A stretch of 64,000 bases of DNA from an uncultured bacterium (GTDB taxonomy: Bacteria > Zixibacteria > MSB-5A5 > CAIYYT01): NCBI GenBank assembly GCA_963726455.1, contig CAVSCK010000003.1, positions 109,118 to 173,117 of the forward strand, written 5' to 3'. Below, in pieces: positions 529 to 62,545 of this stretch. The notes below the pieces were generated by a model, which saw only the letters and a list, made by a program, of their open reading frames with translations, was not told the DNA's origin and ran no database searches. Each line of letters begins with the position of its first letter. Position 1 is the stretch's first letter. A program made the translations under genes and the position numbers.

Positions 529-719
529 ACGACTGTTACTCCTTTGGAAAAACAACAAATTAGCTTGATATGATAGCTCAGAAGGCGGTGATGTCAAGCA
601 CTATTTGCCGCTCATGCGCTCTTAACAGCCTATGACTCTTAAACATACACTGCTCAAGAAGTTCCAAAAAAGGTTTTCGAGGGCGATTGACGGCTGAGGC
701 ATTAATGTTACATTGCGGC

Positions 720-23086: not shown

Positions 23087-24212
23087 TTCCCTTCTGAGCT
23101 ATTATGGACAAGTAGAAATCTTCATATTGTTTTACGAGCCGATCCGCGCCGAATCTGTTGACGGCAGTATCACGCGCGGCGATTTTCATTTGAGAAAGTT
23201 TGGCTTCATCCGAGAGCAATTCAGCGGCCGCCTTCCCCATCGAACCGGTGTCTCCTACCTCAAACAGGTAACCGTCGTGACCATGGGTTATCACTTCCGG
23301 CAGTCCTCCCGTACGGCTGGCAATTACCGGCACAGCGCAGGACATGGCCTCCAACGCCGCCAGACCGAAGGACTCAGTTTCGGACGGCAGCAGGAACAAG
23401 TCTGCGGCGGGAAGAATCGATTCCACCGAATCCTGACTGCCGAGGAAAATGACGTCGTCGTCAATGCCATGTTTCCGGGCGATGTACTCGGCGAGCGGCA
23501 AATCGGGACCGTCACCGATCAGAACCAACTTGGATTTGACCTGCTCATGTATCAAGCGGAACACTTCCACGACATCAGCAATACGTTTGACAGGGCGAAA
23601 ATTCGACAAGTGCATGACAATCTTGTGATCGTCTTGAGTAAAGGGCGTTCGGGTACAACGGTCGGAACTAGGCCTGAATACTTCAGTGTTGACGAAATTG
23701 TGAATCACCTCAATTGGCTTATCGATGCCGAAAACCTCGACGGTTTGCTTGCGAATGGCATCCGAAACTGCCGTCAGGCCGTCCGATTCAGCCAGCGAGA
23801 ACTTGGTGATTTCAAAAAATGATCGTTCCGTACCGACCAGAGTAACGTCGGTGCCATGCAGTGTAGTGATGACTTTGATGCGGCAATCTTTGGCAATCTG
23901 TTTTGCCAGAAAAGCTGCCGGAGCATGAGGGATGGCATAATGGACGTGTAACAGATCGAGCTTCCAGCGGCAGACAACGTCCGCCATCTTTGCAGCCAAG
24001 GACAGCGTATAAGGCGGATACTTGAAAAGCGGATAACTGGAAATCTCAACCTCGTGGAAGAATACGTTTTCGCGGAATCGATCCAGGCGATATGGAAGTG
24101 CGTACGAAATAAAGTGCACCTGGTGTCCGCGCGCAGCGAGCGCCATGCCCAATTCGGTGGCAACAATGCCGGAGCCACCAATGACAGGGTAACAGGTAAT
24201 TCCGATTCTCAT
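23070..24212 (-). CDS. bshA: GT4 glycosyltransferase BshA (N-acetyl-alpha-D-glucosaminyl L-malate synthase)
   Basis: [35 protein letters not shown] matches the BshA N-terminus closely, with a GT4 C-terminal domain. Confidence 0.8.
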
Positions 24213-44869: not shown

Positions 44870-46489
44870 TCAGAGTTTGCCCTCCAAACCCAAATGTACC
44901 AGCATGCGTCCCAGCTTCTTTTCCTCGCCCATCGAAATATCAAAACGGAACGAACCGGCAGACGTCATGACAATCATCCCCACGCCAAAACCTGCCAACG
45001 GTCCGTCCTTTGACTTGGACTTAATGTAGGCATTATCACTGAACAGATGCAACATCAAGTTGCCGGCGGCATACCATTGCAGTTCGGTCGATCCGATGAA
45101 ACCCAGTCTGGCGAGATAACTATTTTCGCGATAGCCGCGAACCGTTTCGACACCGCCAACAGGTATCAACTGATCGATGGGAATAGCAGCGAAATCAGAC
45201 GTGATCTGAAAGTATTGAGCGCGCTGAAAGAGAATCAGATTGTGCCGCAGCGGCAACCAGATTTTGGCATCGGTGTTGAGATTACTGGAATAACCGTTGT
45301 TAGACACACTGCCGCTTTCGAATGACTTGCGATAAGCCGAGGTGACTTGCTGCGTAACAAAAGCGCCGCGCGTCGTGCGATGAATGTCGTTGCGACGATC
45401 ATATTGAACGTTCAGGTCAACTGCCAGCAGACGCGCCGACGGTGACGTCTGATTTTCCTGTGGCGTAATCTTGTTCCAGCGTATCGCACTACCGAGACTC
45501 CAATTCTCACTCAAGTGACAACTGGCTCCGGCCGTGGCGCTGGTGCTGTTGAAGGAAGAATCGCGAGCTTCCTGTGACAATGTGGCGCGCAAGTCGAGCG
45601 GATAGTCATCGAAATACGGCAACAGCGCGTTGAGGTTAAGTTTACGCGACAATTGATTCTGGCGCGACCAGATGAAGCCGAATTCTTCCCCGCGGCCAAA
45701 TGCATTGATCAGATTCACCGACACCTGGCCGGCGATCGTGTTGTCGGGGTTGAGATAGGCAAGTCCGTCGAAGGCGAGGTTGCGTTCATCACGCAAGGGC
45801 AGCGCGACATTTACGGTGCGGTTGAGACTTTCATAGGTGAGAGACGCTTTGCCTGATGGTTTGCAGTGGCGGAGATGACCCAGCGTTCGCTCGGACGATT
45901 CCAAATCGGTCTCGCGAAATAAGTCGCCGGAATGAAGAGCCAACCGCTTGCGCAATGGCTCTGGTTTCGTGGTCCTGATGCCGGGAAAATCAACATTGCC
46001 CACTGTGACAAGCGGCCCCTCAACTACAAGCATGTGTGCAATGATGATCGCATCGGAAATATCAAGATTCTTGATCTCTGCCTGTGCGAACGGGTATCCG
46101 TTGTTAGCATACAGGCGAGTCAACTCCTTTGTCAACTGCTCAAGACTCGATTTCGTAAGCGGCGCTGAGTGCGGCAACTCCTGCAGCAATCGCGCCGCGG
46201 TGGAGTCGGCAAGTCCTATCAGGCGAAGTTCGGAACAGGTGAAACGTTTGCCTTCGGTTATCGAGAACAGCGTATCGGCGGCGGTGATCTTCGCGGAAAC
46301 TTGTCCGAGGAAGTAGCCGTCTGCGGCATAGGCAGCACTGATCGACTTGAGATGCTGATCTACGTCACCCGGTTGCGTGCACAATTCCATCAGTACTGCG
46401 CTGCGGAAATGATGATTGCCTTCAAAGCGTACAGCCGCGTTCGCGCACGAATACAGTACAAGTACGGCGATCAAGATTCTTCGTGTCAT
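44870..46489 (-). CDS. Omp85-family outer membrane protein (surface antigen D15 / TamA-like; POTRA plus beta-barrel)
   Basis: A signal peptide, a POTRA-like N-terminal region and a C-terminal beta-barrel with alternating hydrophobic residues. About 539 aa. Confidence 0.65.
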   Translation of the reverse strand: MTRRILIAVLVLYSCANAAVRFEGNHHFRSAVLMELCTQPGDVDQHLKSISAAYAADGYFLGQVSAKITAADTLFSITEGKRFTCSELRLIGLADSTAARLLQELPHSAPLTKSSLEQLTKELTRLYANNGYPFAQAEIKNLDISDAIIIAHMLVVEGPLVTVGNVDFPGIRTTKPEPLRKRLALHSGDLFRETDLESSERTLGHLRHCKPSGKASLTYESLNRTVNVALPLRDERNLAFDGLAYLNPDNTIAGQVSVNLINAFGRGEEFGFIWSRQNQLSRKLNLNALLPYFDDYPLDLRATLSQEARDSSFNSTSATAGASCHLSENWSLGSAIRWNKITPQENQTSPSARLLAVDLNVQYDRRNDIHRTTRGAFVTQQVTSAYRKSFESGSVSNNGYSSNLNTDAKIWLPLRHNLILFQRAQYFQITSDFAAIPIDQLIPVGGVETVRGYRENSYLARLGFIGSTELQWYAAGNLMLHLFSDNAYIKSKSKDGPLAGFGVGMIVMTSAGSFRFDISMGEEKKLGRMLVHLGLEGKL

Positions 46490-49400
46490 TGGAACCTCGA
46501 AATCAATTCCGTGCGCAGGAAATAACGCCCCGGTTCGCCATGGCGAATGTCGCCCTGGCCGGTCAAACGAAACGAGAAGTTCTCGGCGAAACTGAAATCA
46601 ATCAGGATCGTGCCGCCGAAGTTCGCTCCGGTTGGAAACCCATCCGCCATCTGCAGCAGAATCGGCCGATTTGCGGCTTCGATCACCTGCAGCATGAAGA
46701 CCGTTGTCTCGATTCGCCCCCTGCCGACAAGGTTATAGTTCACCTTGGGAGTTATCCTAAGAGTCGTGGCGCGCAACGACATGGAATCCGAATTCTCACG
46801 ACCGATCTCGACGGTGGCGCCCATTTCCCAGAGTCCGCGAAAGTGCGAGCCGGCGGTGATCAGCGACCGCCTGTGAACGGTGAGATTGTAACGGCCGAAT
46901 TGTTGGTCGGACAAATTCTCGGCCTCACCGGAAATTTCGACAAAGTCGCGTTCACCTAAGCGTTGATTGAAAAGCAGTTTGAACAGCTCGTTGCCGTTGG
47001 CCTGGGGGTGCAAGACATCAATCAGGTTATCCTCACTGCGAATTCGATACGAGAATTCACTGCGCAGGCCGATTGCGCGATCATAACGTCGATAACGATA
47101 TTCGTCACTGCGCTGGCGGAACCGTTGAACTGCGCCGAAATACGCGAGCGAAGGCAGCAGCCAGCGTGTTTGGAAGCTGGTCATGTCATTTCCGATCTCG
47201 TGCAAACTTGTCTCATAGCGCAGGGAAGTCCCGGCAATCAGGAAACTCTTTGCCAGTTTGCTCAGGTCGGCGTTGATCTGAACGCGTTTTTCTGCCTCGA
47301 CCGACGGCGTCAAGGTACCCACTTGTTCGGTGACCAGTATGTAGTCGCCGTTCGATTGCGGCAGATAGACGGAATCAATCAGTACATAATCGCCCTTGCC
47401 GCTCTCGACCTTGAGATAAGTCTTGTTGGTCTGGAAACTTCCCAACCGGCTCAACCGCATATTGGCGTTCAGGTCGACAACACGCGCGATCTGTGGTATA
47501 TCGAGATTTAAGAGCCCGCTGTGATAGGTGGTCTTCTTCCCCGTCGCATCATTGAAGCGGTTGAATGAAGCATTCAGATCGACCTTGCGACTCTTCGCGA
47601 AAGTGCGATTGACATTCAATCCCAGCGTCTGTTTGCGATCCACCATATTCCATGAGTTGAGATTCTGCCAGTTCTCTCGCTGCCGAGCGGTCACGGAAAT
47701 CCCCGCGTATTCCGTTCCAAATTCGATTTCACGTTTGCTGGCGTATGTAAGCGGCTGTCCCACCAACGCAAGCTTGCGATTGTCATAGTCGACTTTGGCT
47801 GTGAGCGCGAATGGTTTAATGTCGAGCCGGTAGGTGGGCTTGATCTCGAAAAGACGATTCGACGCCAGTGAGATCCTTCGAGGACGCGTAACTCAGGTCA
47901 ACCCCGATTTTCGAGTTCGCCACCTGAACCAGTTGCGTCGAGACTCCGGCGCGCCGCGACTCGAAGCCGCTTTTCTCCGAAGTATATCCGCCTTCAATTT
48001 TCGACCGATCATGGCTCCCCAGACTGAAAGTCATGTCGCCCAGATAGCGCTGGCGGTCGCTGAGTTCCTGCTTCTGGCGCTGCCAGAGGTAATTTTCGTC
48101 TACATAGTCGAGCCGACCCAAACGGGCGAAGCCGGCTGGTAAATACTCCGCCGACAGATTGCCCTTCACTTTCTGAGATGTACTCGCGTACGCCGCACCA
48201 AAGAAACCTGCCGCAGTTGTGTTCTTGCTGTTACCGTCAGTGGAAAAGCGGTTGCGGTCGTACGACGAAACGCCCACCTCGGTCGACAACTTCAACGTTC
48301 CCGTCGGAGCGTAGTCAGATTTTGCCACCACGACCTGAGATGCTTCCGGCATGGGCAAGGTTCTGACGGGCAGGTAATTGCCTCTTCCTCTGCCGGCAAA
48401 CTGATAGCGGCCCCCGCCTAGATAGAGGTAATCCCCGCTGTCAACCTGCGTAAACGTTACACTGTAATCACCATGGCGATCTCCCGCATAAACGAAGACG
48501 GTATCGCTCAGAGAGTCGACCTGCATCGTGTAGTCACCATTTCCCTGACCTACAGAGCGCGCCCCCGGAACCACCGCTTTGGTAGGATCGTTGCCTGCCG
48601 AACGCAGAGCAGCGATATCGGTCTCGCTGAGCGTGAAGTCTTGCGGGTCGCTTCCCGCGGCAGTCAGGCCCGCATATCCGATGCCGATCTGTGCCTTGCC
48701 GTCACCAAGACTATCCGTGACGGCGCCGGTAACGAGTGTCTTGCGATATTCCAGGCGCTGATATTCGAAATCGACTCTGACACGGTCTTGGTTATCGATG
48801 GCAGTACGGCCGGTGAAATAGAGTTCGCCGCGCGTGTAATCGAGGTAATAATCATGGTCGCGTCCGCGAGTTATTGTCGCGCCGTTGAGCCAGACCGTCT
48901 CGGAGTTTTCGATTACGGCGATACCGGATTCACCGTTCTTGCCCTGCAGGCGGTACGGGCCGTTAAAGCCGTCAGTGGTGGTGAAGTTGTATTCAGTATA
49001 GTTGCCGGGTGGAACGGAGACGGATGATTCCACGGTTGCGCGGCCGGTATGGTACTTCACGCCCATACCCTGTACATTGCGGCTCATAGACAGATATCGG
49101 AAACGATCTTCCTTGAGCTGGTAGCTGCCGAAAACGCCGTTGAGATGCTGGGACTGAACTTCCAGATAGACGTTGTCCAACTCGGAGAATCTTTTGGTCA
49201 CCATCTGATTGTCGCGCAAACCGCGATCAGAAAACGTGCCCTTGACAATTACTCCGCGGCCGATATCGCCGGAGAGCGTCAGGGCGAGTCCCTGCGACAG
49301 GTTCGTCTGGCCCTTTTGGGAGACGTCGGCATAAAACGACTTCGAGCCGGAGACTTTGAGATTCGCGGTGGGCGCGGTCAGTTCTCTCGACGACGTGACC

Positions 49401-49804
49401 GGAGCCGGAGCCAAATCAGCTTCGTTGTCGCCCGTACTCGACAGGAAATCGTGTAGCGCGTAGCGACGGCCGATTATATCATAATTCAGAAATCTCACGA
49501 CTCGAATTGTGTCGCAAGCGATCTGTCCCGCCGTCAGCGTGATGACACTGTCATTGGATACGAAGTCACGTCCGCGTCTCAGACTGTCATTCCCGCAAAT
49601 CAGGATGACCGAGGAATCACCCGCGGAGGCGTATACGAAATTGACGGAGGAATCCTTGAGTGCAATACTGGTGACGATGACGATTGAAGAGACGGATGCT
49701 TGCGGATTGAGCGGCGCCGCCTGCAATCGCAGCGACAGGCATATAAGACCTACGAGGATTAAACCGGCAATAAGCGCGCGGCCTTCATTTTGCAGCAACT
49801 TCAT
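46486..49804 (-). pseudogene. Large (about 1090 aa) beta-rich envelope protein with an N-terminal signal anchor (TamB/AsmA-like, or an outer-membrane beta-barrel). It is split by a frameshift around 47767..47815 into ORFs 47816..49804 and 46486..47766.
   Basis: Continuous amphipathic beta-strand character runs across both ORFs, and they read in different frames. The gene is immediately upstream of, and co-directional with, the Omp85 gene. Confidence 0.5.
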
Positions 49805-50720
49805 AAATCATGACACGGTTGTTGCCCGTATCACACACGAACAGCTTGCCATCATTTCTGCGAGCAATGCCCGACGGAGCACTCAAATTCATCGGTCCGC
49901 TTCCCGCGCTCCCCAGCGAGGCCAGTCGCGTGCCATTCAGGTCGAACAGTAGAACCTCGCTAGTCGCCTTGTCGGTGGCAATAATCTCTTTGCCGTGAAC
50001 GACAAAGCCACCCAGCGTCTCAATACCCTGCAATTGAATTTTGCCGGCCGCGTTGCCGAAGGTGTCGAACTTGTACAGCGTTTCATCATTGCGATCATAA
50101 ACGTAAACGTCACCTTCGTCCGTGACATAAATCGCGCTGCAATGCGAGAAGCCACCGGGAGGAAGCAACTCCTGCTCGATCTTGTAATCCTTGTCCAACA
50201 CGATCACTTTGAGATTGTCGGGATCGACCAGGTACATCCGCCCCGTACGGGCATATCCGATCGCCGCTATCTTCCCAAGCGCTTGCAGGTCCGGGTTGCT
50301 GTTGAAACGCACCTCATCTGCAAATACCAGATCACGGTCGGAACGAACAATGCGATTGTTGCCCTGGTCGAGGACATAGAAATTGATCCCGCCGTCGGAG
50401 ACGATGTCGGTTGGCCGGCTCAATCCCGAAATCCCCAAACCGAAACCGCCGTTTTCTTTGAGGAACTGATACTCGGGGCCAAGTTTGACAATCCGGCTGT
50501 TACCCTGATCAACAACGTAGAGATCGTTCTGCTGATCGTACGAAATTGCCACCGGCGAGGACAAATACGAGTCACCGAGTTTACCCGAAATCTCTCCCAG
50601 ATAGCGAATCTGGCGAGGTGTCGGCTGACCAACGATCACCGGTTTGGGAGCCGGGGCACAGGCGATGAACATTGACACCGCCACAGCGAACGGCAGAAGT
50701 ATTGAAGTCCAGCGCTTCAT
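49785..50720 (-). CDS. NHL-repeat (six-bladed beta-propeller) lipoprotein
   Basis: A lipoprotein signal (MKRWTSILLPFAVAVSMFIAC) and repeated ...YVVDQGNSRIVK / YVLDQGNNRIV... NHL motifs. Confidence 0.75.
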   Translation of the reverse strand: MKRWTSILLPFAVAVSMFIACAPAPKPVIVGQPTPRQIRYLGEISGKLGDSYLSSPVAISYDQQNDLYVVDQGNSRIVKLGPEYQFLKENGGFGLGISGLSRPTDIVSDGGINFYVLDQGNNRIVRSDRDLVFADEVRFNSNPDLQALGKIAAIGYARTGRMYLVDPDNLKVIVLDKDYKIEQELLPPGGFSHCSAIYVTDEGDVYVYDRNDETLYKFDTFGNAAGKIQLQGIETLGGFVVHGKEIIATDKATSEVLLFDLNGTRLASLGSAGSGPMNLSAPSGIARRNDGKLFVCDTGNNRVMIYEVAAK

Positions 50721-50721
50721 C

Positions 50722-51462
50722 TTAGAACCTGGCCGACAGACTGACCTGCCAGCCACCGTCCGGCAATGGTTTCAAATCCACTCCACCGAAACCGGATTCA
50801 ACTTGCCGGTTGTGACGTTTTGCGCTCCAATAGGCATCGGCGGCGGAAATCAGATGGTTGGCGATAATTAGCCCCAGCGAGAAGTTCGATTTGCGATAGT
50901 AGGATTTGCTGTCGTTCTTGAGACTGCGGTATTTCAGCCGGGCGTCAGTCGATTGCCAATTCCAGAAGTAGGTCTTGGTGTCCGGGAAATATACCCTGTT
51001 GTGGTCATAAGCGCCGGCAACCTTGTTGTATTCCTCACGCGAATCATAGAATCCAAGGATATCGAAGAAGCGATCATCCTTGCCCTGAACATCCGCGCCC
51101 GCCGCAGTTGCAGCATACAACCGATAATCGTCGCTGCGCCAGTTTCCCAGGTGTCGGAATGATATGAACGATGCCCAGAACCCAACTTCCGACAGGAAAA
51201 ACACTTTGGACTTCAGTCTGGCTCCGGAATAGTGTTCGCCTGCGCCGGGGAGCACAAATGACATCAGAAACGCCCGCCACGGCTCCTTTAGATTGACTCG
51301 ATTCTTTTCCTGAACTTCGGAAAAGCCGGGTGTCTTTTGTTTCTGCTGGTCAACTTGTCCAACTCCTACCGCAAACAACTGCGACTGCGGCAGTTTGATC
51401 TCGGATCGAGCGGTCGCGCCGGTGAACAACAGTAAGGTAAGGATCAGAAAGGTATTTTTCAT
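50722..51462 (-). CDS. Uncharacterised signal-peptide protein, tandem paralog A (possibly DUF5683-like)
   Basis: Shares the motifs S[FV]VLPG[AS]G[EQ]xY and IANHL[IL]SAxDAxxSAKR[HY]N with the adjacent gene. Confidence 0.6.
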   Translation of the reverse strand: MKNTFLILTLLLFTGATARSEIKLPQSQLFAVGVGQVDQQKQKTPGFSEVQEKNRVNLKEPWRAFLMSFVLPGAGEHYSGARLKSKVFFLSEVGFWASFISFRHLGNWRSDDYRLYAATAAGADVQGKDDRFFDILGFYDSREEYNKVAGAYDHNRVYFPDTKTYFWNWQSTDARLKYRSLKNDSKSYYRKSNFSLGLIIANHLISAADAYWSAKRHNRQVESGFGGVDLKPLPDGGWQVSLSARF

Positions 51463-51466
51463 ATCT

Positions 51467-52339
51467 TCAAAAAGTATAGGTGAAAATGAGTTTTGGAATC
51501 TGGTGTCCTTCGTAGCGCACCATTTTCGCCCGAACCGTCATCTGCGAGAAAGTATCCTGCTTCTTATTATAGCGCTTGGCCGACAGCGCCGCATCAAATG
51601 CCGAAAGCAGGTGATTGGCGATTGCCACGATGGCGCCGGTCTTGGCTTTGGTGAAGAAGTTATTCGCGGTGGCGCGGTCATTCAGGTATGATACCCGCGA
51701 CGGGGAATTATCCTTGCCGGTCAGGTAATCAGTATCCTTCCAGCCGTAACGGAACTGGTCGTACTTCCCTATCATTTCATAGTACTGCTGGGTTTTGGTG
51801 GTCGGCAGATGGTGTGTGAATCGTGTCGCTTCGCCGTTAACCGAGATTTCAAAGGTGTCGGAGGTCACACCATAGGTTTCGATCAGCCAGTCGGTATACT
51901 GTTGGGCCGACCAATTTTGGTCGGCGAAATTGTTATATGCCGTGGTCTTGCTTTGACCCTTATTGTGATTGACGAGCCACTCCGTCCAGGAAACGATCTC
52001 TATGCCCAGAAACAGTCCGGCCTTGATTTTGGAGTTATTGTAGAACTGCCCAGAGCCAGGGAGCACCACGGAATATAAGAAGGCCTTATTTGGCGATCGG
52101 TAGTTCGTATTGAGCAGGTCGGAACTGAGCGGGAAATCCTCGAAATCGGAAGCCGCAAAGTTGACGCCGGTATACTCCTGCAACTGGCGATAGGTTTTGA
52201 GTTCATCCTTCTGCAGGAACTTGTCGATTTCGCCCGCCGGAACCGGCGGTGAAGCGGCCAGGATCTGCGCCGAGACCAAAAGAACTGAAAATGCAATGAG
52301 CCAAGACCTCAACATGAATTTATCCTCCGAAAAAGACAT
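51467..52339 (-). CDS. Uncharacterised signal-peptide protein, tandem paralog B
   Basis: The same conserved motifs as paralog A (SVVLPGSGQFYNN; IANHLLSAFDAALSAKRYN). Confidence 0.6.
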   Translation of the reverse strand: MSFSEDKFMLRSWLIAFSVLLVSAQILAASPPVPAGEIDKFLQKDELKTYRQLQEYTGVNFAASDFEDFPLSSDLLNTNYRSPNKAFLYSVVLPGSGQFYNNSKIKAGLFLGIEIVSWTEWLVNHNKGQSKTTAYNNFADQNWSAQQYTDWLIETYGVTSDTFEISVNGEATRFTHHLPTTKTQQYYEMIGKYDQFRYGWKDTDYLTGKDNSPSRVSYLNDRATANNFFTKAKTGAIVAIANHLLSAFDAALSAKRYNKKQDTFSQMTVRAKMVRYEGHQIPKLIFTYTF

Positions 52340-52342
52340 ATT

Positions 52343-55300
52343 TCACTTCACAACGGCGACCGTGCAACGTTTGCGATCGCCTGACGATGTTTCGAGCTGG
52401 CAGAAATATACTCCCGATGCCAGCAAAGAACAATCAAAGGGGAGTTCGTTATCAGTGCCGGCGGCTGCGGCCAGATGCGTGTTGTATACCATGTCGCCGG
52501 CGACATTATAGAACTTGACCGTCACATCCCCTGACTCCCGAACCGTAAATCTTATCGTCGTCTTGTCCGATGCCGGATTGGGATAATTGTATATGTATCC
52601 AATGGCATCAGCAAGTTGCGTGGGATCAGGTAAGGGTTTTACGTAAGAGCCAAAATTGCGCGGACTGCCGTAAGAATTGTTCCAGTCTACCTTGGCGGGT
52701 GATTGCACGGCCAGAGCGTTGATCGACCCCTCTCGTGATAGCGCAAACAGCGCGGCAGTGGAACCACGGCGTACCAGCACGATCGGTGACGCGAGCGAGC
52801 CGCCCACGGATATTGGATAATCCGCAAGGCGATCACCCAGCAAGTTGAAACCGGCCACTTCACCGTTTGCCGTGCCGACGAAGACTTCCATCTTGCCATC
52901 GCCGTCAATGTCAGCCAATACAGGCGCCGTAGTCACCGGACCAGTAGGTATCATCGGGTTAACCGTAATCGGGAAATTGCTGACCGGCGTGCCGTTTTGG
53001 TTGTAAGCGAAAATGCGATTACTTCCGCAGAAAAGAATTTCGATCGAGCCATCACCGTCGATGTCACCAAGTGCGATCTCTGAGGTAATTGTCTCGCCAA
53101 CCTGCGTGGTAGATGTCTTACCGGCGTAATTGATGAGCAATCTTCCATCCGCATAGACTTCAGCAGTCTCGTAGACGCCATTGCGATCGAAATCAGCGGC
53201 GGCGGCACCGACTATTGCATGCGCGGAATCGGTCGCAACCAGGCCTCCGCCTGGGGCAACAAACTCGAAATGATGCAGTGAATCGGTCATAACTCGGAAC
53301 GGAATCGCATTTTGCTCTTTGAGTATCCGGTTGCCGCTCTTGTCGAAGACAAGTTTCTGGCCGTCAGAGGTGTAGACCAGAGTTTCCAGACCGTCAACTG
53401 CGTTATCGTAATCGAGAATGATCGGCGCAATGGCTGCTTCGCCGTCAATTGGCTGATTGAACAACGTAATCGCCTCGCCCTCGAAGTTGGTTGACGCTGT
53501 TGTAAAGCAGACCAGACTGCCGGCGGATGTTACACCCAGTATCTCGGCGAAACCGTCGCCGTTGATATCAGCGACCGCCAGACCATGCAGGAACCGCTGC
53601 CGCGAATCTATCTTGCCGAGCACAGCCAGTGTATCATAGACGTTTCCCGAACCGTAGAGTACTTCCCGCTGGACGACTATCAAACTGTCGGGATTGGCAC
53701 TGAATAGTGGCGAGCCGTCGAACTTATAGGCGAGCAGAAAGGGTCCCGACGAAGTGAGAATCTCGTCACTGCCGTCGCCGTTGATGTCAGCCGCAACCAG
53801 AGGCAAAGAATTCGCGAAAATCTGATTCGGCCAACCCGGCAGGCGTCCGTCGATATGAACGCTGCAAGTCATGATCAACAGGGATGCCGAGATATTTCCG
53901 ATCGTAATCCCCGTGTAGGCATTGTTGTTGGCAATCGTAGGCGGATTGGTGTTTGGTCCGAATGTCGGACTGTTGTTGATATCGAACATGTCCGCTTGTT
54001 CACCGTAACCAGAGTAGTAGTATCCGCCGAAATCCACGATGCCGTTAGCTTCCTCAAGCGTCAGGAAACGGTGATGATTGTCCCATTTGACGGGATCAGA
54101 CGCGAAATTCCAGACTTGTAATCTGTTGTCGTGGAAATTGTCGATGCCGTTGCCGTCGTAGTCTAGACGCGCAACTAATTCATCGATATGCCAGATCAGC
54201 ATTCCCGAACCGGGGATCAAGTAATCGTATTCGCGATTGCATTGCGGTTTGTCACGATCAGTATTGCGGGGCCACATAAAGACGTTGGTAAGGCTGTCAA
54301 CCTGAAGCCCCGTGATTTCCTGATTATCAATATCAGTACGCCGATTTTCGATCAAGTAATACTCATCCGGATTGATCGGAACCATGAGAACCTGGTTGTA
54401 ATTCGAGTCAAGTTCCGCAGCGACCACTTTGATCTTGTTCGCCGAAGTGACTTCCACAATGTCGACAAACCCAAGATAGGCGCGCGACCAGGCGTCGGGA
54501 TAAACCGGCATGACACCTGACACCAGCACCGGTATGGTATCGCCAAAGTTGATGTTCACTCCGAAGCCGTTGTAATCCATCAGCGAAAAATCACCGACCT
54601 GGGTCATAGCGGTGCGGGTGTCATACAGATCGACCAGACCAAGTTGATGGCCGAATTCGTGCCCCATCACCGCATTGAGAGCGGTAACCCTGTTATCCTG
54701 TGAGGCAGTTTCCGGCATGATGACGGCGTCGCTGACCATGACTCTCCCGTCTTCCAGCGAAAACGCTCCGCCACCCAGCTTGACATAGCCGGTATACAGA
54801 TCGGAGCGGAGTATCCGGCCCCGCGAATGCAAAGTTGTTTTGCTGATCGGAGCCGGCATGGAAAATTATATAAGCGTCGTAGCGGTCCTGCCCGGCTATC
54901 GAATCGTATAGCGACAGTTCAGGATCAATATCCGCCGTATGCATGGCATCGTAAACCAACCGCGTCAGACCGACTACCGGTTCCACCGCGCCGTAGTGCG
55001 CCATCGACGAATCAAGCTGATAAGCCGAATCGACATTTCGCGGATATACATCGTACTCAATTTTCAGCCGGCCATTGGAAACCACATCATAATAGGTCGA
55101 CAGCGCTTTCAAATGTTTCTCGAAGTAGCTGCGATTATGCGGAGCCGGATCGATAAGATATCCTTGCTGCGCATAGAACTCAGCTTTGGTTCGCATATCG
55201 AAGTTGCCGTTGCCCGTCGTGAGCGGATCGTCCGGAACTTCCTTGCGGAAATTGACTCTGATCGCCAGCACGCGGATGACCTTGGGACTCATGGGCGACA

Positions 55301-55505
55301 GCGCATGCAGAGGCATGCGATACTTGCCGGAGTAGTCGAGCCCCAGCAGGTTCCGGTCAGACACCTGATCCGCCAGTCCGGGTTTTGGTTGCTGACTGCT
55401 CGGCTGCTTGGATTTCATTTCGAGCATACCGGCAACAGCGACCGAGCCAAACAGACAGGCGGCCACAAATAGGACTATTATGACAGAACGAGACATCCTT
55501 TTCAC
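52343..55505 (-). pseudogene. M6-like (immune-inhibitor-A type) zinc metalloprotease with FG-GAP/VCBS beta-propeller repeats and a T9SS C-terminal sorting domain. It is split by a frameshift near positions 54700-54860 into ORFs 54693..55505 and 52343..54859.
   Basis: A signal peptide in the N-terminal ORF; HEFGHQLGLVDLYDT (HExxH) in the C-terminal ORF; repeated DINGDGSDEIL / DIDGDGKMEVF FG-GAP motifs; and a T9SS CTD-like C-terminus (...TIRFTVRESGDVTVKFYNVAGDMV...GVYFCQL...). Confidence 0.7.
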
Positions 55506-55508
55506 CGC

Positions 55509-58500
55509 TTACATCTTTACCGTCAACGAAGTTCTCAACGTATTTGCCAACGGCAGATTGTTCGACGAAGGGATATATGCAAAATCCAGCCGGTATCTTC
55601 CCTTGTACTGGAGTCCGACGCCCAACGTCGGGGTCTTAACCTGCCCTTCCTGATCATAGATATATCCGGCACGCAAGGCAAGTAGCGAACCGTACCAATA
55701 TTCCAGGCCGACGTTTTCGATGGCCTGTTTCATTTCTTCAGAGAAACCATCTCCTAGCGACGTGAGCATCTTGTTGACTTCACCGACTATGGTCAGCCGA
55801 TTGTATGGCGAATCGAGCAGGCGGTATGCGAAACCAACCGCGAGGTTGCGCGGAAGAGCGTCCGACTGCGCAGCGTCGATATAGGACATGTTCGGACCCA
55901 GGTTGGTCACGACAACGCCGATCCGTAGCTTTCTGGTCATCGTATAGAGAATACCGCCCTCGGCCGCGAATGATGTGCCCTCGCCGCGGCCAACTTCCTG
56001 ACCGGCGCCGACTACTGACAGACGGCTGTAAATCACCTTGGCCGACAAACCGACGGCCAGATTCCGCGAGGCACGGGTTCCATATGATAACGTGAACGCA
56101 ACGTCGAACGGATTGATGGTTCCGGTCGGCTCCGATGACGTTTCTCCGGTGGTCACGATTGAACCGTAGGAAAGAAACGTGATGTTGGCGCCCAGCGTAC
56201 CCAGTGATCCGACTGGGTGTACATAACCAAGGAATTCGTAGTAGAGATCGGGGGCAAGATCAGGCAGCCAGTTGGCATGAGTGAAACTGAGCTCTTTCTT
56301 GCCGTGCGCAAATATCGTTACGCGATCGGCGGTCGCAAACCAGATTTCGCCTGCTTCACCGACGATGTCTTTGGTATTAGTCCGATTCAGGCCTTCGTGG
56401 TAATAACGTTCCCACCGTCCTCCGGAATATGAGAATGTTCCATACAACGAAGCGACGTACAACTTGCCACCCTGGTCATAGAGCGAGTTGATCGGGCTTC
56501 CGGCTGGATTGGCATATACATAGACAACGTTTCCGACCGGAAGAGGCCCTTCTTGAATGGTGTTCTTTCTCTTGATCAGACTTACAAACGCAGCGACTCG
56601 GTCGGGATCTTCCACTTTGAGATACTCTCGGACCAATTGGTCAAGGGTCATTTCCTTTTCGACCTTGACAGCTTTGTAGCCGTAACTGTACCACGACTTG
56701 CCATCGAAGCGCTTGATGCCTAGATCGGTGCCGACCCACAGATTGTTGTCCCCGTCCATACTGAGCGCGGTAATGTTGCCCTCAAATTCAGGAAGAAAAG
56801 GCACGTCAATCACGACGCCGGCTTTGGGGCTGGTCGTAAACTCGGGATTGTCCATCCCGTACTTTGCCGCCTGCAATTTAACCTTGACCATGTCGATGTT
56901 CCCGTATGCCTTGCTGAACACTGACAAGCAAGTGTCGTTAACTGCAGAGGTAACTTTGAAAGAATTGGTCCAGGCAACGCCGTCGAAATAGAATAGATCT
57001 TTGTCCGAGGCCGCCCAGGCAAGTCTATCATTCTTGACCGCAATATTCTTGATCGGGAAAGAGGTGACGCCTTCGGCAGCGCCGAAACGTGCCCACTTTC
57101 CTTCTCTGAGGACATCGAGTCCCTTATCCGTGCCGACCCACAGTTGGCCGTGCTTCGGGGACTTGACACACCAGATGACGGCGCTTGAATCGGTGCCGGT
57201 GGCAAACTTCTCCCAGTTGCGTCCGTTGTAGCGGTAGAGACCATTATCCGTGGCTACAAACAGAGTCTTGCGATCGACGGCGAGATCGTTAATAGCTCCG
57301 CCGAAGACGGCTTTGAATGGGAACCTGATCTGTGCCGGCAACTGATCGGTGATGGATTTTTCCAAAGCAAACACCAGACGGTCGGTTTCGGCCTGGGTAA
57401 GTGCCGAATCAGCGAAGGCCTTGTCGAAAGTGCTCGTGAAGATATCCAGTTTTTCCTGGTTCAATTGACAGTTCGTCCAGGCATCTTCGAGACGGCCAAG
57501 ATTCTTGATCACTTCCTCGCGATTTTCGAAATCGGCCGGCAATGCGTTCTGAACCTTATCACGAATTTCGAGGAGACGTTCACGCGAGATCGTGTTGTTG
57601 GCGCGGGCGACCATATCCAGCCGCGACTTGATGATATTTTCGTCTCCAGTGCCTAGCGCACGCGACACGATATCGCTGAGCTTGTCTCCCTTGCGCGGCA
57701 TCACGATGTCGCCGTCCTGCCACTTGGTGCCGTCGAAACGCGCCAGACCAAAGTTGGTGATAGCCCAGATGTCGTAATGCGTGTAATTGTCGTTCGGGAT
57801 GCTGTTTTCCATCACAGCGATCTTGTCGATATTTTGCTCCCACGGCACTTCCCATCCCTGCCACATAGTCAACAAAACCGCATAGGGAACCAACATCTGC
57901 TGCGGACGCGCCGATGTTTCACAGGCAACAACCGCGCCGTCGATTTCCGTGAGCTCCTCCGCCGATACTGCGTTATCAGCGATGGCAGCGGCGACTTTGT
58001 CTTTGACCGCGGGAAATGCAGCCGCATTGAACCGCAAATCCTGCCAGAAGATCACCATCTTCTCGAAAGTGGCGTTGATCTTCTCGCTTGCGGCAGCGTC
58101 CTTACCGGCAGCCGCCAGCAGTTCCAAACGCAGACCATTGATGTCGTCGAACGAAACACCGGTGTTTGCCAGACATATCTGACGAACAGCCGATTTGAAT
58201 CTTTCCTTGTCAACTGTGGAAGCGCGACGAGCGAGATTCGCCAGAATCGTGCGTGAAGTGTCAACGCCGATTTTTTCCGCCGGTACCCAGGTGCTATCGA
58301 CAAAGCGGCTGATTTCATTGCCTCTGATTTGCCACGAAGCAAACTTCTCAAAATAAGTCGGAGCCAATTTGCCCCGGAAGGCCTGCTCTGCCAGATCGCG
58401 CAAATGCGTGTCGTCCGTCAGCTTGAACTGATACCAGTTGTGTGCCAACGGATACTCGCCCAGTCCGGCCGGATTCCAGTGCGTGGTTGACGCGTCGTCG

Positions 58501-58658
58501 GCTATTGCCACAAACGCTTCACCCATACCGGCACTGCGGGCATTGGGGGCGATGCGAAGGAATAGAACCGCGGCGTCACTTACCGCGCACTCTGCTTCCG
58601 GCGCCAGAAATCCTGCCCACGAGCTGACGATCAGCAGAAGAACCAGGAATCGTCTCAT
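55509..58658 (-). CDS. Giant PorV/FadL-like outer membrane protein (1049 aa) with a large internal insertion containing two-component-regulator propeller (Reg_prop) repeats. It is a putative T9SS PorV homolog.
   Basis: After the signal peptide, the N-terminus LRIAPNARSAGMGEAFVAIADDASTTHWNPAGLG matches the FadL/PorV first-strand signature. The C-terminus ends in a beta-barrel strand (...LRTSLTVKM). The internal region carries LWVGTDKGLDVLREGKW / LWVGTDLGIKRFDGKSWYSY Reg_prop-like repeats. The gene is adjacent to porU. Confidence 0.55.
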   Translation of the reverse strand: MRRFLVLLLIVSSWAGFLAPEAECAVSDAAVLFLRIAPNARSAGMGEAFVAIADDASTTHWNPAGLGEYPLAHNWYQFKLTDDTHLRDLAEQAFRGKLAPTYFEKFASWQIRGNEISRFVDSTWVPAEKIGVDTSRTILANLARRASTVDKERFKSAVRQICLANTGVSFDDINGLRLELLAAAGKDAAASEKINATFEKMVIFWQDLRFNAAAFPAVKDKVAAAIADNAVSAEELTEIDGAVVACETSARPQQMLVPYAVLLTMWQGWEVPWEQNIDKIAVMENSIPNDNYTHYDIWAITNFGLARFDGTKWQDGDIVMPRKGDKLSDIVSRALGTGDENIIKSRLDMVARANNTISRERLLEIRDKVQNALPADFENREEVIKNLGRLEDAWTNCQLNQEKLDIFTSTFDKAFADSALTQAETDRLVFALEKSITDQLPAQIRFPFKAVFGGAINDLAVDRKTLFVATDNGLYRYNGRNWEKFATGTDSSAVIWCVKSPKHGQLWVGTDKGLDVLREGKWARFGAAEGVTSFPIKNIAVKNDRLAWAASDKDLFYFDGVAWTNSFKVTSAVNDTCLSVFSKAYGNIDMVKVKLQAAKYGMDNPEFTTSPKAGVVIDVPFLPEFEGNITALSMDGDNNLWVGTDLGIKRFDGKSWYSYGYKAVKVEKEMTLDQLVREYLKVEDPDRVAAFVSLIKRKNTIQEGPLPVGNVVYVYANPAGSPINSLYDQGGKLYVASLYGTFSYSGGRWERYYHEGLNRTNTKDIVGEAGEIWFATADRVTIFAHGKKELSFTHANWLPDLAPDLYYEFLGYVHPVGSLGTLGANITFLSYGSIVTTGETSSEPTGTINPFDVAFTLSYGTRASRNLAVGLSAKVIYSRLSVVGAGQEVGRGEGTSFAAEGGILYTMTRKLRIGVVVTNLGPNMSYIDAAQSDALPRNLAVGFAYRLLDSPYNRLTIVGEVNKMLTSLGDGFSEEMKQAIENVGLEYWYGSLLALRAGYIYDQEGQVKTPTLGVGLQYKGRYRLDFAYIPSSNNLPLANTLRTSLTVKM

Positions 58659-58696: not shown

Positions 58697-61600
58697 CTAC
58701 TTCATTACCACTAACTTGCTGGCTGACATAATCCTCTTGTTATCCTGACTATCGGCAGGTTTGGCCGATAGTTGGAAGATGTAAACGCCGTTGGCGATGA
58801 TATCGCCGTCGGTATCGCGCAAGTCCCAATGAATCCCGTCGTGGTAACCCGAGGATTGTGGGAGATTGCTCAAAGACAAGATCTCCAGTCCGGAGACCGT
58901 GAAAACTTTCAACGTGACGTCAGAGGCGTCATCGGAGAGGATATAGGCAAATTGGCATTTATCGGCTACCGGATTCGGGTAGCAGAGCAACTGCGCGATT
59001 TCCAGGCCGCTGGCACTGCTTACTTTGAAGGCGATTTCTTTCTGGCTCGAATTATTGGCTGAATCCCACGCCTTGGCCCGCAGCCGATGCTCGCCCGGGT
59101 TCAGTTTCGGAAGCGTTATAACCGCTTTTCCCCGTTGGTAGCTGCCGGGGTTGTACACGAAGCTGTCGGTCAGTGCGTACGTCATCTCCCGGCTGTCATC
59201 GATCACCAGCTCAATTCCATGACCGATATCACCACTGAGGTTTATTCCGAGAGAGTCGAACAAGTCCAGCGTTACTTTGGCATCCTGTGAAATCTGGGCG
59301 TTGTCACTTTTCGCCGGATCGTCGGCAAAATAGACGGCAAGATCAGGTCCGGTAGTGTCGTTAACACTGGTGTTAATGCTACCGATCGCGATCGGAAACA
59401 CGTAGCCGGCGGCGCCGCTGTTGGCCGAAACCGCATACCCGCTGATGCGTGCTCTAGTGCCGCCGTAGCTCACGTCCTTGGGCACTACAAATTTGAGATT
59501 GAACACGCCGCTGGTCACGTCAACTTTACCGCGATATATCTCGGGACCATACTGCACATAACTTGAGTCAGTCGTAGCGGTGTACTGAAAACGGCGAGTC
59601 CTTTCGTTGTCGAACACGCTTACCGTAGCGGTGCCGCTGAAGCCACTCTGTAGCGCGCCGTTCTTGTCCTCAACCTGTCCGGCCAATTCGGTCACTGTCA
59701 AAGCAACCAGCGAATCGGGCTGGAAGGTCACGAAGTTGATCTGGTCGGGAGCAACACCCAGTCGCGTCATCGGATCGCCGATGTAAATATATTTTCTATC
59801 GTTGTCGCGAGCATCCCAGCTTCCCTGTCGCAACAGTTTGGCAACATAGACGGCCTCGGCAATCGTGTAGTCTTTGCCGTTAAAGAGTTGGGCAAAGGCC
59901 GCCTGATTGAAAAGGAAATTGGGCCGCGAGAATACCAGTCTCGTCGCCGAAACGGTTCCGACCGCGCCACCCGACGGATATCGCAGCAGTTCCTCAGCCA
60001 TACCTTCAGACAGCGGGTCGTCAAAAAAGCCGATCGAACAGGACGCGTTAAAGATGAGCGGCAGACGATCGGAGTTGTGCAGTTGCGGAATATCCTGTAT
60101 ACGTCGAAACATTCGCTCGTCCGCCCAGAGATTAGGATTGCCGTGGCCGATGTAATTCACCAGCAAGGTGCCGTTGTTAATCGAGCGTATGATCGCCTCG
60201 CGTGCCGCCGGTTTTTCGTTACCGACAAAGGGATAGTCGACGCCATAGACTTTGTTGAGATCGAATTTGGGTGGAATACTTCCCGAGGCCAACTGCTCCG
60301 AGTCGACCGTATGCTGAATCTCCGGGCCGGAGCCGGGATGATTGAGGTCGTCGGCAATCAGTGTGACCAGATTGCGCCACGAACCATTATTGGCCGCCGC
60401 CTCGTAGTTCATCATCTTTTGAGCGACAACCTGAAACTCGCCGGCTGTTTTGACCGGCCAACGGGCGATCACCATATCGACTCCCCGATCGGTCGGATAT
60501 GAATTATCGGCATCAAGTTCGTATGGTTCGCCGAAGTAGACAAAGTTTTCGTCGGAGATGGTCGAGTCATTGGGCACGATATAAGGCGGCACGTAATTGA
60601 CTCCGCCTTTTCCCATGTCGTTGCGGAAATCATATACTCCGTCGCCAGCCAGCAGGCAGAACGATGGACGCGCGCCGCTCCAGTTTCCGTATGCGTAGCG
60701 CAGAAAATCGCGGATGGCGATCGGATCCATCATGCCGCCGGAAAATTGCGCGTAAACATCCGAAATGCGGACGACGCGGACTCTGATGCCATCATGATTG
60801 GCACGGTAATTCGCAAAGTCGACCGCCTGGCTGTAGAAGTTGTCATGTGCGATGATGATCAGGTCGGCGCCGTTGCTGGACGACCGAATGTCATCGATCT
60901 GAGTTGCAACAATCGAGAATGGCTTTCTGATTGCGGCGTCGGTGGCCAATGCGAAAACTTTGCCTCCAGCGACAGTTGGAGTCGAGACAAACTCGACAAA
61001 GTCGCTTCCATATAACGGGGCAACCAACTTCTGATTCCCGATATCCGTCACATCCAACACAGCGGTTGTCAGTGAGCCACCAGCTATTTGATAATTATGA
61101 GAAACATCACTGGTATCGCCGAATAGTACCAGTTCACCGGTAGCCGGCAAAATCACCGGCCGCTCGTAATTGATCTCTATGTAATCCGTCAATGTCCCAT
61201 ATGGAGAAGCGGTAAGCGTCAATCCGATTTGATTCAACGCCGAGTCAAACCGATCCGAGTGGAAATAGAAGAATGGTGTACGCGTCGAATCAGGTGTGAG
61301 GTCGGTACCGTTTAGGCGCACCGCCATTTGTCCGGAGTACCCCCGAACCCTGAAATTCTGCCAGGCGCCTTCAACTGGAGCGGGAAGATTAAGAAAAATA
61401 TCCACCGTCGGATTGTCCGACCAGTACCAGTGGAAGTAATCCTCAATCACTCCTCCGTGGCTGGCGAGAACCTTTTCGTCTTCAAAGTGCAGAGGATCGA
61501 CGAATGTCCGAACCGTATCGGTGGCAGCGGTTTCTGTGCCGTTGACCGTGGCCATGCGTCTGGGACTCCAGCCAAATGATCCGCCGTACGTCAAATAGAA

Positions 61601-62545
61601 CACGTTGCGGTCGCCATAGGGATTCAGACGATAGGTCAGTGCATCAGACCAATCCCAGAAATCCGGGCCGTTGGCGTAGAAGAGAATGTAGTCCTCACCG
61701 CCGAAAACTCCGTCCTCCTCGCCGTGAACCGCAATGGCCACTTCCGCAAGCGAGTCCCGCGCGCTGGAGTTGGGAATTGGCAGTGTTTTTCCGCCGGCGC
61801 TGAACAGACGCAAACTGCGCGGATCGACCGTTGCGACATCGATGCCTGCCGTCGACAAATCGGTGCGGGTAATCTTGTAAATGCCTCTCGTCTTAATTGC
61901 TATCCTCAGCCAGTTCGTCGACTGTGAAAACGGATTATATGTGGTTCCCTGTGCGGAGACTGAAGTCTTCGGATACCAGGTTTCCCTCTGATCGGAATTG
62001 ATTGCAAGATTGGCAATTACGTTATCCAGCGGTCCGTCCGGACGCGAAGAACTGGTTTCTGGTATGCCTTCGAACTGTATGTGGACGTCTGCTCCAACTA
62101 CCTTGCGAAGCTCGGAACCTTGGCTCCCAGCTTCAGGGATGAGAACCGAACAAAGAGCCTTGGAGCGGACAGTGACAACCTTGCCAAGGCGTATCTTCGC
62201 AAGTGAATCCGGAGGTGCGGTTGCCGTACCGGCTGCACTTCCGAGATTCAGCGAACTGCTTATCAGGCGCGGAGTTGTGCCTCGCGGCACCAGGAACATG
62301 ATTACATGTGTATTGACAAAGGATGTGTCATCAACCGGAACTGCCACTTGCGATGCCTTGTTTAGATCACCGGCAACACTGGCTTTCCCTGACTTCGAGA
62401 TGGAATCCCCAAAGGACACGCCGAACGACAGGTCGGTGGCAGAAGAAGCAACCACTGACACGGCTGACTGCGTATTTGCGAATAGCTGGTTTGTGCCTAA
62501 TATGAGATATGATATGAGAAGGGTTAACGCGCAGAATTGTGACAC
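58697..62545 (-). CDS. porU: T9SS sortase PorU (C25 gingipain-like peptidase with a CTD)
   Basis: A 1282-aa protein with a C25-like catalytic region (...IGHGNPNLWADERMF...NASCSIGFFDD...) and a C-terminal T9SS sorting domain (CYPNPVADKCQFAY...GVYIFQLSA...). Confidence 0.7.
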   Translation of the reverse strand: MSQFCALTLLISYLILGTNQLFANTQSAVSVVASSATDLSFGVSFGDSISKSGKASVAGDLNKASQVAVPVDDTSFVNTHVIMFLVPRGTTPRLISSSLNLGSAAGTATAPPDSLAKIRLGKVVTVRSKALCSVLIPEAGSQGSELRKVVGADVHIQFEGIPETSSSRPDGPLDNVIANLAINSDQRETWYPKTSVSAQGTTYNPFSQSTNWLRIAIKTRGIYKITRTDLSTAGIDVATVDPRSLRLFSAGGKTLPIPNSSARDSLAEVAIAVHGEEDGVFGGEDYILFYANGPDFWDWSDALTYRLNPYGDRNVFYLTYGGSFGWSPRRMATVNGTETAATDTVRTFVDPLHFEDEKVLASHGGVIEDYFHWYWSDNPTVDIFLNLPAPVEGAWQNFRVRGYSGQMAVRLNGTDLTPDSTRTPFFYFHSDRFDSALNQIGLTLTASPYGTLTDYIEINYERPVILPATGELVLFGDTSDVSHNYQIAGGSLTTAVLDVTDIGNQKLVAPLYGSDFVEFVSTPTVAGGKVFALATDAAIRKPFSIVATQIDDIRSSSNGADLIIIAHDNFYSQAVDFANYRANHDGIRVRVVRISDVYAQFSGGMMDPIAIRDFLRYAYGNWSGARPSFCLLAGDGVYDFRNDMGKGGVNYVPPYIVPNDSTISDENFVYFGEPYELDADNSYPTDRGVDMVIARWPVKTAGEFQVVAQKMMNYEAAANNGSWRNLVTLIADDLNHPGSGPEIQHTVDSEQLASGSIPPKFDLNKVYGVDYPFVGNEKPAAREAIIRSINNGTLLVNYIGHGNPNLWADERMFRRIQDIPQLHNSDRLPLIFNASCSIGFFDDPLSEGMAEELLRYPSGGAVGTVSATRLVFSRPNFLFNQAAFAQLFNGKDYTIAEAVYVAKLLRQGSWDARDNDRKYIYIGDPMTRLGVAPDQINFVTFQPDSLVALTVTELAGQVEDKNGALQSGFSGTATVSVFDNERTRRFQYTATTDSSYVQYGPEIYRGKVDVTSGVFNLKFVVPKDVSYGGTRARISGYAVSANSGAAGYVFPIAIGSINTSVNDTTGPDLAVYFADDPAKSDNAQISQDAKVTLDLFDSLGINLSGDIGHGIELVIDDSREMTYALTDSFVYNPGSYQRGKAVITLPKLNPGEHRLRAKAWDSANNSSQKEIAFKVSSASGLEIAQLLCYPNPVADKCQFAYILSDDASDVTLKVFTVSGLEILSLSNLPQSSGYHDGIHWDLRDTDGDIIANGVYIFQLSAKPADSQDNKRIMSASKLVVMK

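Follow-up and report, generated by a model that had tools for sequence, protein, structure and literature searches.

The window analysed here, the whole stretch of 64,000 nucleotides from contig CAVSCK010000003.1 of an uncultured member of the Zixibacteria, contains a gene cluster behind porU and porV, which encode the sortase and a barrel protein of the T9SS (type IX secretion system). Our interest lies in the interval 49785-55505, which encodes an M6-like metalloprotease, two paralogs called A and B in the following, and an NHL-repeat lipoprotein. On the basis of the gene linkage described below, A and B are likely undescribed partners of a PorV-type outer-membrane barrel. The genes in question are listed in the order of their transcription (window positions).

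58697..62545, minus strand: porU, T9SS sortase, 1282 residues (NF033707, 720 bits); first in the co-directional cluster and outside 49785-55505.
55509..58658, minus strand: long PorV, 1049 residues (NF033709, 244 bits).
52343..55505, minus strand: M6-like zinc metalloprotease with FG-GAP repeats and type-A C-terminal domain (CTD), 1053 residues after repair of a frameshift (HEFGHQLGLVDLYD; TIGR04183).
51467..52315, minus strand: paralog A, DUF5683-like, 282 residues (a start at 52339 is possible and gives 290 residues; PF18935, 32.3 bits).
50722..51462, minus strand: paralog B, DUF5683-like, 246 residues (PF18935, 27.0 bits).
49785..50720, minus strand: NHL-repeat β-propeller lipoprotein, 311 residues from an MKRW start (the open reading frame, ORF, reaches 50756; NHL, 55 bits).

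From porU to the NHL gene the gaps amount to 38, 3, 27, 4 and 1 nt, and the genes after that overlap. The tight co-directional spacing, the position right behind porU and porV and the identities of the four genes had been proposed in an earlier note on this DNA, and they agree with the coordinates and profile scores given here. Its borders 49785 and 55505 coincide exactly with the stop of the NHL gene and the start of the M6-like gene, and the motifs it quoted for the protease, A and B are present verbatim in the translations. An operon appears probable from this arrangement. An identical 282-residue entry for A, encoded on an 822-kb contig, was found in a public collection, where the named relatives are Zixibacteria. 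The gene order porU, long porV, M6/FG-GAP/CTD gene, A, B and NHL gene is kept in four related contigs at 44-71% identity; these continue with a gene for ~1100 residues, an Omp85-like gene, ubiA, batD and moxR, and their M6-like gene is intact (1042-1099 residues).

PorU reaches 720 bits against the T9SS_sortase model NF033707 (cutoff 420) and 281 bits against Peptidase_C25 and belongs to the T9SS sortases. PorV passes the PorV/PorQ subfamily model NF033709 (244 bits, cutoff 90) and scores 185 bits against the equivalog NF033710, below the cutoff of 250; its barrel is interrupted by an insert of ~715 residues. In an alignment to PorV of F. johnsoniae, the T9SS cargo shuttle (PDB 6H3I, chain F), the barrel is covered from its first strand up to the C-terminus (query residues 5-65 with 7-64 and 783-1047 with 67-393), with the exception of the ~715 residues that are inserted between residues 64 and 67 of the F. 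johnsoniae protein. The insert follows the first β-strand and contains Reg_prop propeller repeats. From general barrel topology, this loop would be expected on the outer side of the cell. The long form is kept in Zixibacteria, whereas PorV of KSB1 and Caldithrix comprises 353-365 residues and has no insert. The PorU2/PorV2 families (NF052324/NF052325) of a putative second system were considered as well and rejected, as porU and porV of the window reach 146 and 41 bits, far below the cutoffs, and the canonical models match. Literature matches for 'PorU2/PorV2' turned out to be reference superscripts and not protein names.

Directly behind porV, the M6-like gene encodes a protein with an N-terminal Sec signal peptide, MKRMSRSVIIVLFVAACLFGSVAVAG, as read from the translation. 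Its M6-type zinc site, HEFGHQLGLVDLYD, is intact, the motif HExxHxxGxxD being present as HEFGHQLGLVD. An FG-GAP_3 match (61 bits) and a type-A CTD follow, the latter at residues 974-1044 of the repaired protein with 36.9-37.5 bits against TIGR04183 (cutoff 23) and 43.2 bits against PF18962 (cutoff 27). The CTD predicted earlier is thus present and marks the protein as T9SS cargo. It is not arbitrary cargo, since it holds a conserved slot after porV, as outlined below. The expected length of ~1050 residues is obtained with the 1053 residues of the repaired protein; in the sequence itself the gene is split into ORFs of 270 and 838 residues. To the M6 family of MEROPS (immune inhibitor A) the protease is linked by the HExxHxxGxxD motif and by detectable matches to both models. 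It differs in that TIGR03296 stays under its cutoff (80.3 bits for the repaired protein, cutoff 110.8) and PF05547 (Peptidase_M6) is only 0.9 bit above it (22.9 bits on the 838-residue ORF, cutoff 22), and in the additional FG-GAP region and T9SS CTD. No solved M6 structure matched the protease by sequence.

A closer likeness is seen to NF052323, the 'T9SS-dependent M6-like inactivated metalloprotease' (T9SSA_dep_M6i). Shared are the length of ~1040-1100 residues, the M6-like N-terminal domain, the FG-GAP/VCBS propeller region and the type-A CTD, and the alignment spans most of the 1043-position profile. The gene position is shared as well, directly after porV and with the A-B pair next; the two proteins that pass the NF052323 cutoff of 600 bits, in loci L058 (621 bits) and L083 (641 bits), both have A and B downstream. 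In contrast to those members, in which the first His and the Glu are gone, the window protease retains HEFGHQLGLVDLYD. With 345 bits and an intact active site, membership in NF052323 fails, and we regard the protein, judged from its motif and profile scores, as a catalytically intact sister of the family. This holds in the wider comparison. Every full-length Zixibacteria ortholog listed retains HE[FY]xHQ[LM]G..D, mostly as HEFGHQLGLxDLY, and these orthologs score 311-342 bits on NF052323. In KSB1 and Calditrichota, the proteins of the slot after porV reach 507-641 bits, and the alignment shows that their first His and the Glu are lost, for example VLMFGAQIGLPNLF. Since these dead members are still conserved beside porV, a structural role with PorV and PorU can be argued for the M6-like protein, with proteolysis as an extra kept in Zixibacteria.

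In KSB1/Calditrichota-type loci an additional gene for ~1015-1020 residues, here called gene X, lies between the inactivated M6-like gene and A (L071, 6916-9960; L076, 6614-9676; L085, 6190-9255). It encodes a Peptidase_MA_2 domain with HExxH motif and PD40/Tricorn-like propellers. Judged from this motif, gene X may supply an active protease in place of the dead M6 site. A relocated ortholog of the ~1105-residue Zixibacteria protein described further below was considered for gene X and rejected, as the two are without similarity.

Paralogs A and B share two unusual motifs, which read SVVLPGSGQFY and IANHLLSAFDAALSAKRYN in the translation of A and SFVLPGAGEHY and IANHLISAADAYWSAKRHN in that of B. 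With 25% identity and a BLASTP E value of 2e-18, A and B are true paralogs on the evidence of this alignment. Against DUF5683 (PF18935), the family named in the earlier note, both exceed the gathering score of 26.7 by a small amount (A 32.3 bits, B 27.0 bits), and many orthologs of A and B score below this threshold. The only family matched is thus an uncharacterised one. The PGxGQxY motif followed by a long helix is common to DUF5683 and the paralogs; the paralogs differ by an added tip domain and a C-terminal β-hairpin, and by the marginal and partial nature of their matches. Canonical DUF5683 genes of Bacteroidota presumably adjoin parB and not porV. A literature search for 'DUF5683' returned only an unrelated nematode paper and nothing on the function of the family or on a link to PorV. 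The profile search for the A/B family gave 3971 clusters at 50% identity (E <= 1e-3). A tblastn search of B against plasmids gave no match. B-type proteins (window 50722-51462; L004, 10854-11597; L076, 10601-11392) also give matches of 19-22 bits to the Leptospira LIC11435 family NF047756, in its C-terminal half, and from these low scores the PGxG helical-hairpin module may extend to spirochaetes.

Structure predictions with AlphaFold2 gave a mean predicted local distance difference test (pLDDT) of 82 for A and 80 for B, with cores above 90 in both. The models have a common architecture of signal peptide, disordered linker and two short helices around PGxGxxY, then two very long antiparallel helices (residues 96-134 and 205-253 in A, 82-121 and 172-222 in B) with a small helical tip domain that bears YYE..GxYD. 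Both end in an amphipathic C-terminal β-hairpin (strands 258-268 and 271-281 in A) with an almost invariant terminal Phe. In their proximal halves the long helices show moderate hydrophobicity (Kyte-Doolittle 1.1-1.5; Eisenberg <H> 0.42-0.50 with low hydrophobic moment) and bear conserved polar residues, namely E and N-H..S..D.

The conservation of the locus was investigated in a scan with one genome per GTDB species. Among 452 relatives the best 80 loci, from 80 different GTDB species, were analysed; they belong to Zixibacteria, KSB1, Calditrichota and unclassified metagenome-assembled genomes of the Fibrobacteres-Chlorobi-Bacteroidetes (FCB) group. Linkage was assessed in 10-kb flanks, and only loci with enough flank enter the denominators. 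B follows A immediately in 74/74 loci. An M6-like CTD gene lies upstream in 69 of 71 loci, PorV within 10 kb upstream in 57 of 58 and PorU in 40 of 55. The co-occurrence of the paralogs with T9SS genes, which the earlier note had named as a test, extends over at least three phyla. Both loci without an M6-like gene upstream belong to KSB1 and have an upstream flank of only ~3.3-3.5 kb, the span of gene X (~1015 residues) in KSB1-type loci such as L071 and L076. Loci without PorU are of the KSB1/Calditrichota type, and in the two that were examined (L071, L076) gcvPA precedes porV. The sole PorV exception is L029 (5165-9664; CP070839.1, a Zixibacteria chromosome), where porU and porV are missing upstream and a chimeric ORF of 1499 residues joins nucleotidyl-transferase and phosphomannomutase parts to the FG-GAP/CTD half of the M6-like protein; this fusion reflects a rearrangement or else a misassembly.

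The pair consists of an A-type gene followed by a B-type gene in 82/82 loci, and the two form distinct orthogroups. From this fixed order we conclude that the duplication predates the split of the phyla. Across Zixibacteria, KSB1 and Calditrichota, order and adjacency are kept in proteins of 32-71% identity. Such a conserved arrangement is the pattern expected of an obligate heteromer.

Further evidence on the partner of A and B came from weak matches to B, which led to a distant single-copy subfamily in DNA of ~67% GC (guanine plus cytosine). Its members share the three conserved blocks of A and B, which here read LPGAGQ, YYE..SGAYD and ANHLISAADAY. The single-copy gene directly follows a gene for 332-339 residues in 5/5 contigs that were looked up, and stop and start sometimes overlap. 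This neighbour scores 91.3 and 80.4 bits against NF033709 (cutoff 90) and matches the KSB1 PorV in BLASTP with E values of 1e-12 to 1e-25; by these scores it is a PorV/PorQ-family barrel. In the five loci with gene calls (L086-L090) the pair lies between era and rnr. No M6-like gene was detected there, and porU is absent from the called genes. A metagenome scan revealed 63 single-copy loci, 53 of them with at least 700 nt upstream. A PorV-like ORF lies directly upstream in 52 of these 53 and nearby in the remaining one, and an M6-like gene is absent from all scanned single-copy metagenome loci. The arrangement era, PorV-like barrel, single DUF5683-like gene, rnr and GGDEF gene was mostly seen in JGI metagenome contigs (L086, 994-2858; L087, 2799-4645; L088 and L090; L091-L152).

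In the 64-kb window there is a single PorV-family gene, and A and B are the only members of their family. The family thus occurs beside a PorV-type barrel in two unrelated gene contexts, which shifts the link from the T9SS in general to the PorV/PorQ-family barrel. This recurring adjacency is the strongest evidence as to what the A/B family may do. The proposal of the earlier note that the paralogs are T9SS-linked components is supported by genomic linkage, with the restriction that their tightest partner is the barrel and not the whole T9SS.

The NHL lipoprotein is present as described earlier but lies outside the conserved core. Its repeats reach 55.2 bits (cutoff 20), and the N-terminus ...AVSMFIAC fits the PROSITE lipobox pattern PS51257. 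About half of its orthologs match the lipobox in a crude scan, which can be taken as a rough indication only, given the noise from start-codon ambiguity. The NHL gene goes together with the two genes that follow it in the window:

46486..49804, minus strand: signal-peptide protein of ~1105 residues, frameshifted; no family match; outside 49785-55505.
44870..46489, minus strand: Omp85-family protein with POTRA domains, 539 residues (profile scores of the L004 ortholog).

All three genes are present in 32 loci, none in 17, and mixed cases did not occur. Loci without them comprise some Zixibacteria and all KSB1 and Calditrichota loci. This all-or-none pattern places the NHL gene in a separate, optional three-gene module outside the porV-M6-A-B core. 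For the 1105-residue protein no Pfam or NCBIfam family was found besides a 16-bit match to SprA. The L004 ortholog of the Omp85-like protein shows Omp85 (44 bits), POTRA and ShlB-type matches as well as BamA (TIGR03303, 73.6 bits, under the cutoff). The module (44870-50720, minus strand) could be a two-partner or TamAB-like export pair. Beyond it follow ubiA, a gene resembling batD, moxR and then a long Bat operon. Elsewhere in the window, selA and selB for selenocysteine incorporation adjoin a putative bacillithiol locus with a PIG-L deacetylase, a GT4 glycosyltransferase and bshC (18935-22170 and 22370-25846, minus strand).

Taken together, we consider it fairly probable that an operon for T9SS sorting and attachment, headed by porU and porV, is conserved throughout Zixibacteria and that the interval forms its distal part, with the M6-like protein as partner, an A-B heterodimer at PorV and the NHL protein in a module of its own. 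According to this proposal, the protease would be exported by Sec, pass the T9SS translocon by means of its type-A CTD and be handed to PorV and PorU. It would probably stay at the surface as a resident partner of the PorV/PorU complex and, in Zixibacteria, still cleave something. A and B, as an ancient pair of fixed order, would form an A-B heterodimer in the envelope that is anchored or membrane-associated through the proximal helical segments and binds the PorV-family barrel from the periplasmic side, thereby tethering or regulating it. Contact with the barrel would be made through the β-hairpin and the tip motif as candidate sites. The NHL lipoprotein would act separately, in the optional module with the 1105-residue and Omp85-like proteins. 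The operon itself, formation of the heterodimer, the membrane involved, the contact with PorV and the activity of the protease are all inferred.

Several observations weigh against this proposal. Pairing of A with B and their contact with PorV rest on genomic linkage. The DUF5683 matches are partial and cover profile positions 3-71 (A) and 3-114 (B) of 151. The hydropathy of the long helices is marginal, which leaves membrane insertion and the target membrane uncertain. Neither Foldseek nor a profile search found a solved structure in the PDB that resembles the models of A and B, so the fold yields no functional analogy. In scans for promoters and terminators the counts were at the level of shuffled sequence and no intergenic terminator was found; spacing and synteny are hence the sole basis of the operon. 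Of the other T9SS core genes, sprA and porKLMN were not seen within the 64-kb window. Finally, the frameshift in the protease gene does not lie in a homopolymer and could be real, and an independent short-read contig of this region begins ~20 nt downstream of it; heterogeneous reads or a break in coverage at this site could be the reason.

The second context of the family also allows a broader view, which we put forward as tentative. DUF5683-like helical-hairpin proteins might be dedicated partner subunits of PorV/PorQ-family (FadL-like) barrels in general, a widespread and so far unrecognised class. In Zixibacteria, KSB1 and Calditrichota they might be part of a complex that replaces the PorQ/PorZ arm, and the attachment complex might then consist of PorU, PorV, the M6-like propeller protein and the A/B heterodimer.

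Alternatively, A and B could serve the M6-like protein as chaperone, inhibitor or membrane anchor, and would be found near porV only by way of the M6-like gene. In Zixibacteria A directly follows this gene, which lies upstream of the pair in nearly all loci, and in L029 the paralogs remain with the C-terminal half of the M6-like gene although porU and porV are missing. This alternative is nevertheless unlikely. In KSB1 and Calditrichota the ~1020-residue gene X, with its Peptidase_MA_2 domain and PD40 propeller, parts the inactivated M6-like gene from A, and in the single-copy subfamily 52/53 loci have the PorV-like barrel as partner, all of them without an M6-like gene.

A further possibility concerns the membrane. 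A and B could be two-helix proteins of the inner membrane with a cytoplasmic tip domain, which take part in signalling or in the homeostasis of the envelope and share a transcript with porV but have no contact with its product. Each paralog has, besides the signal peptide, two stretches of ~21 residues at the transmembrane threshold, which lie side by side in the predicted hairpin, and the conserved polar residues within them resemble functional intramembrane sites. On the other hand, the helices are less hydrophobic than is usual for transmembrane segments, the amphipathic C-terminal β-hairpin with its final Phe looks like an outer-membrane or β-augmentation element, and the adjacency to an outer-membrane barrel gene holds in both gene contexts. 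An inner-membrane role of this kind appears improbable to us, though a two-helix topology in that membrane is an alternative to be taken seriously.

The frameshift in the protease gene raises the question of whether the module is decaying. The gene is read as a 270-residue ORF (55505..54693) and an 838-residue ORF (54859..52343) in different frames; the break is due to one inserted base (+1) within 'gat act ccg C tcc gat', at ~54803-54806. Intact orthologs have FHAGSDQQNN...DTPGDLYTGFVKLG, while in the window ...DTP is followed by a single surplus C and after that by SDLYTGYVKLG. With this base removed, a protein of 1053 residues is obtained that is colinear with the intact orthologs of 1042-1100 residues. 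A second frameshift lies in the 1105-residue gene at ~47864, as residues 1-647 of the L004 ortholog match 49804..47864 and residues 647-1105 match 47865..46489 in a different frame in tblastn. Two housekeeping genes of the window are split as well. The uvrB gene (687-2485, plus strand) consists of an ORF for UvrB residues 4-163 (687-1244) and an ORF for the rest (1145-2485); in coaBC (7493-8696, minus strand) the Flavoprotein and DFP domains are encoded by two overlapping ORFs. In both genes the frame differs between the two ORFs. The total of four frameshifts in 64 kb suggests an indel-prone assembly, which was probably made from long reads. Because uvrB, coaBC and the 1105-residue gene are frameshifted too, the M6 frameshift is most likely an assembly error.

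That the protease and the 1105-residue gene are instead genuine pseudogenes in this strain is, in our opinion, quite unlikely. The two frameshifts do fall within 7 kb of one cluster, and the sequence context of the M6 indel and the start of the short-read contig mentioned above would fit such a decay. Against it, uvrB and coaBC are unlikely targets of decay and their splits in the same window fit the pattern of an indel-prone assembly. The protease gene is without other lesions, and on both sides of the break it keeps 62-71% identity to its orthologs, like its intact neighbours; downstream of the frameshift the identity to the L004 ortholog is 70.7%. At none of the four breaks does sequence conservation drop on either side. 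All full-length M6-like orthologs in other genomes are intact. The short-read contig (Logan, ERR12037368; 4.6 kb, ~54784-50200 of the window) contains identical genes A and B. Lastly, a fortuitous adjacency of a T9SS cargo gene and unrelated membrane proteins behind porUV is very improbable: the linkage is known here from genes alone, and long co-directional runs, with a prevalence of minus-strand genes, are the rule in this window, but order and adjacency persist at 32-71% identity across three phyla, the PorV link recurs in a second context, and the origin of the loci from 80 different GTDB species speaks against a sampling artefact of one clade.

To our knowledge, almost all that has been learned of the T9SS comes from Bacteroidota. 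Our literature search found nothing on this system in Zixibacteria, KSB1 or Calditrichota. The locus described here defines a conserved layout outside the Bacteroidota, consisting of porU, porV, the M6-like propeller/CTD protein and the A-B pair. It draws attention to an uncharacterised family of ~4000 clusters at 50% identity that is almost always encoded beside a PorV-type barrel, and A and B are a concrete candidate for how PorV-type shuttles could be held or regulated in the envelope. In addition, the M6-like partner offers a natural series of active and inactive forms in which a structural role can be compared with a catalytic one.

Reviews place the T9SS in the wider Fibrobacteres-Chlorobi-Bacteroidetes superphylum (PMC11205867), and PorV is described as the protein that carries type-A cargo at the SprA translocon (PMC10994853). 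In Porphyromonas, PorU, PorV, PorQ and PorZ form the attachment complex, in which PorZ, a propeller protein with CTD, is held by the PorV-like barrel PorQ (PMC12365241). Similar to PorZ of P. gingivalis, which works with PorU, PorV and the PorV-family barrel PorQ on the cell surface, the M6-like protein of the window combines a β-propeller with a CTD; it is encoded after porV. In contrast, PorZ has no protease domain, and the similarity is restricted to the CTD region with 19 bits (cutoff 260). By analogy, the M6-like protein with FG-GAP repeats and CTD, in its active or inactivated form, could play a resident role comparable to that of PorZ. Overall, the locus looks like a variant of the Porphyromonas arrangement, with PorU, PorV and a propeller/CTD protein, plus a new helical pair.

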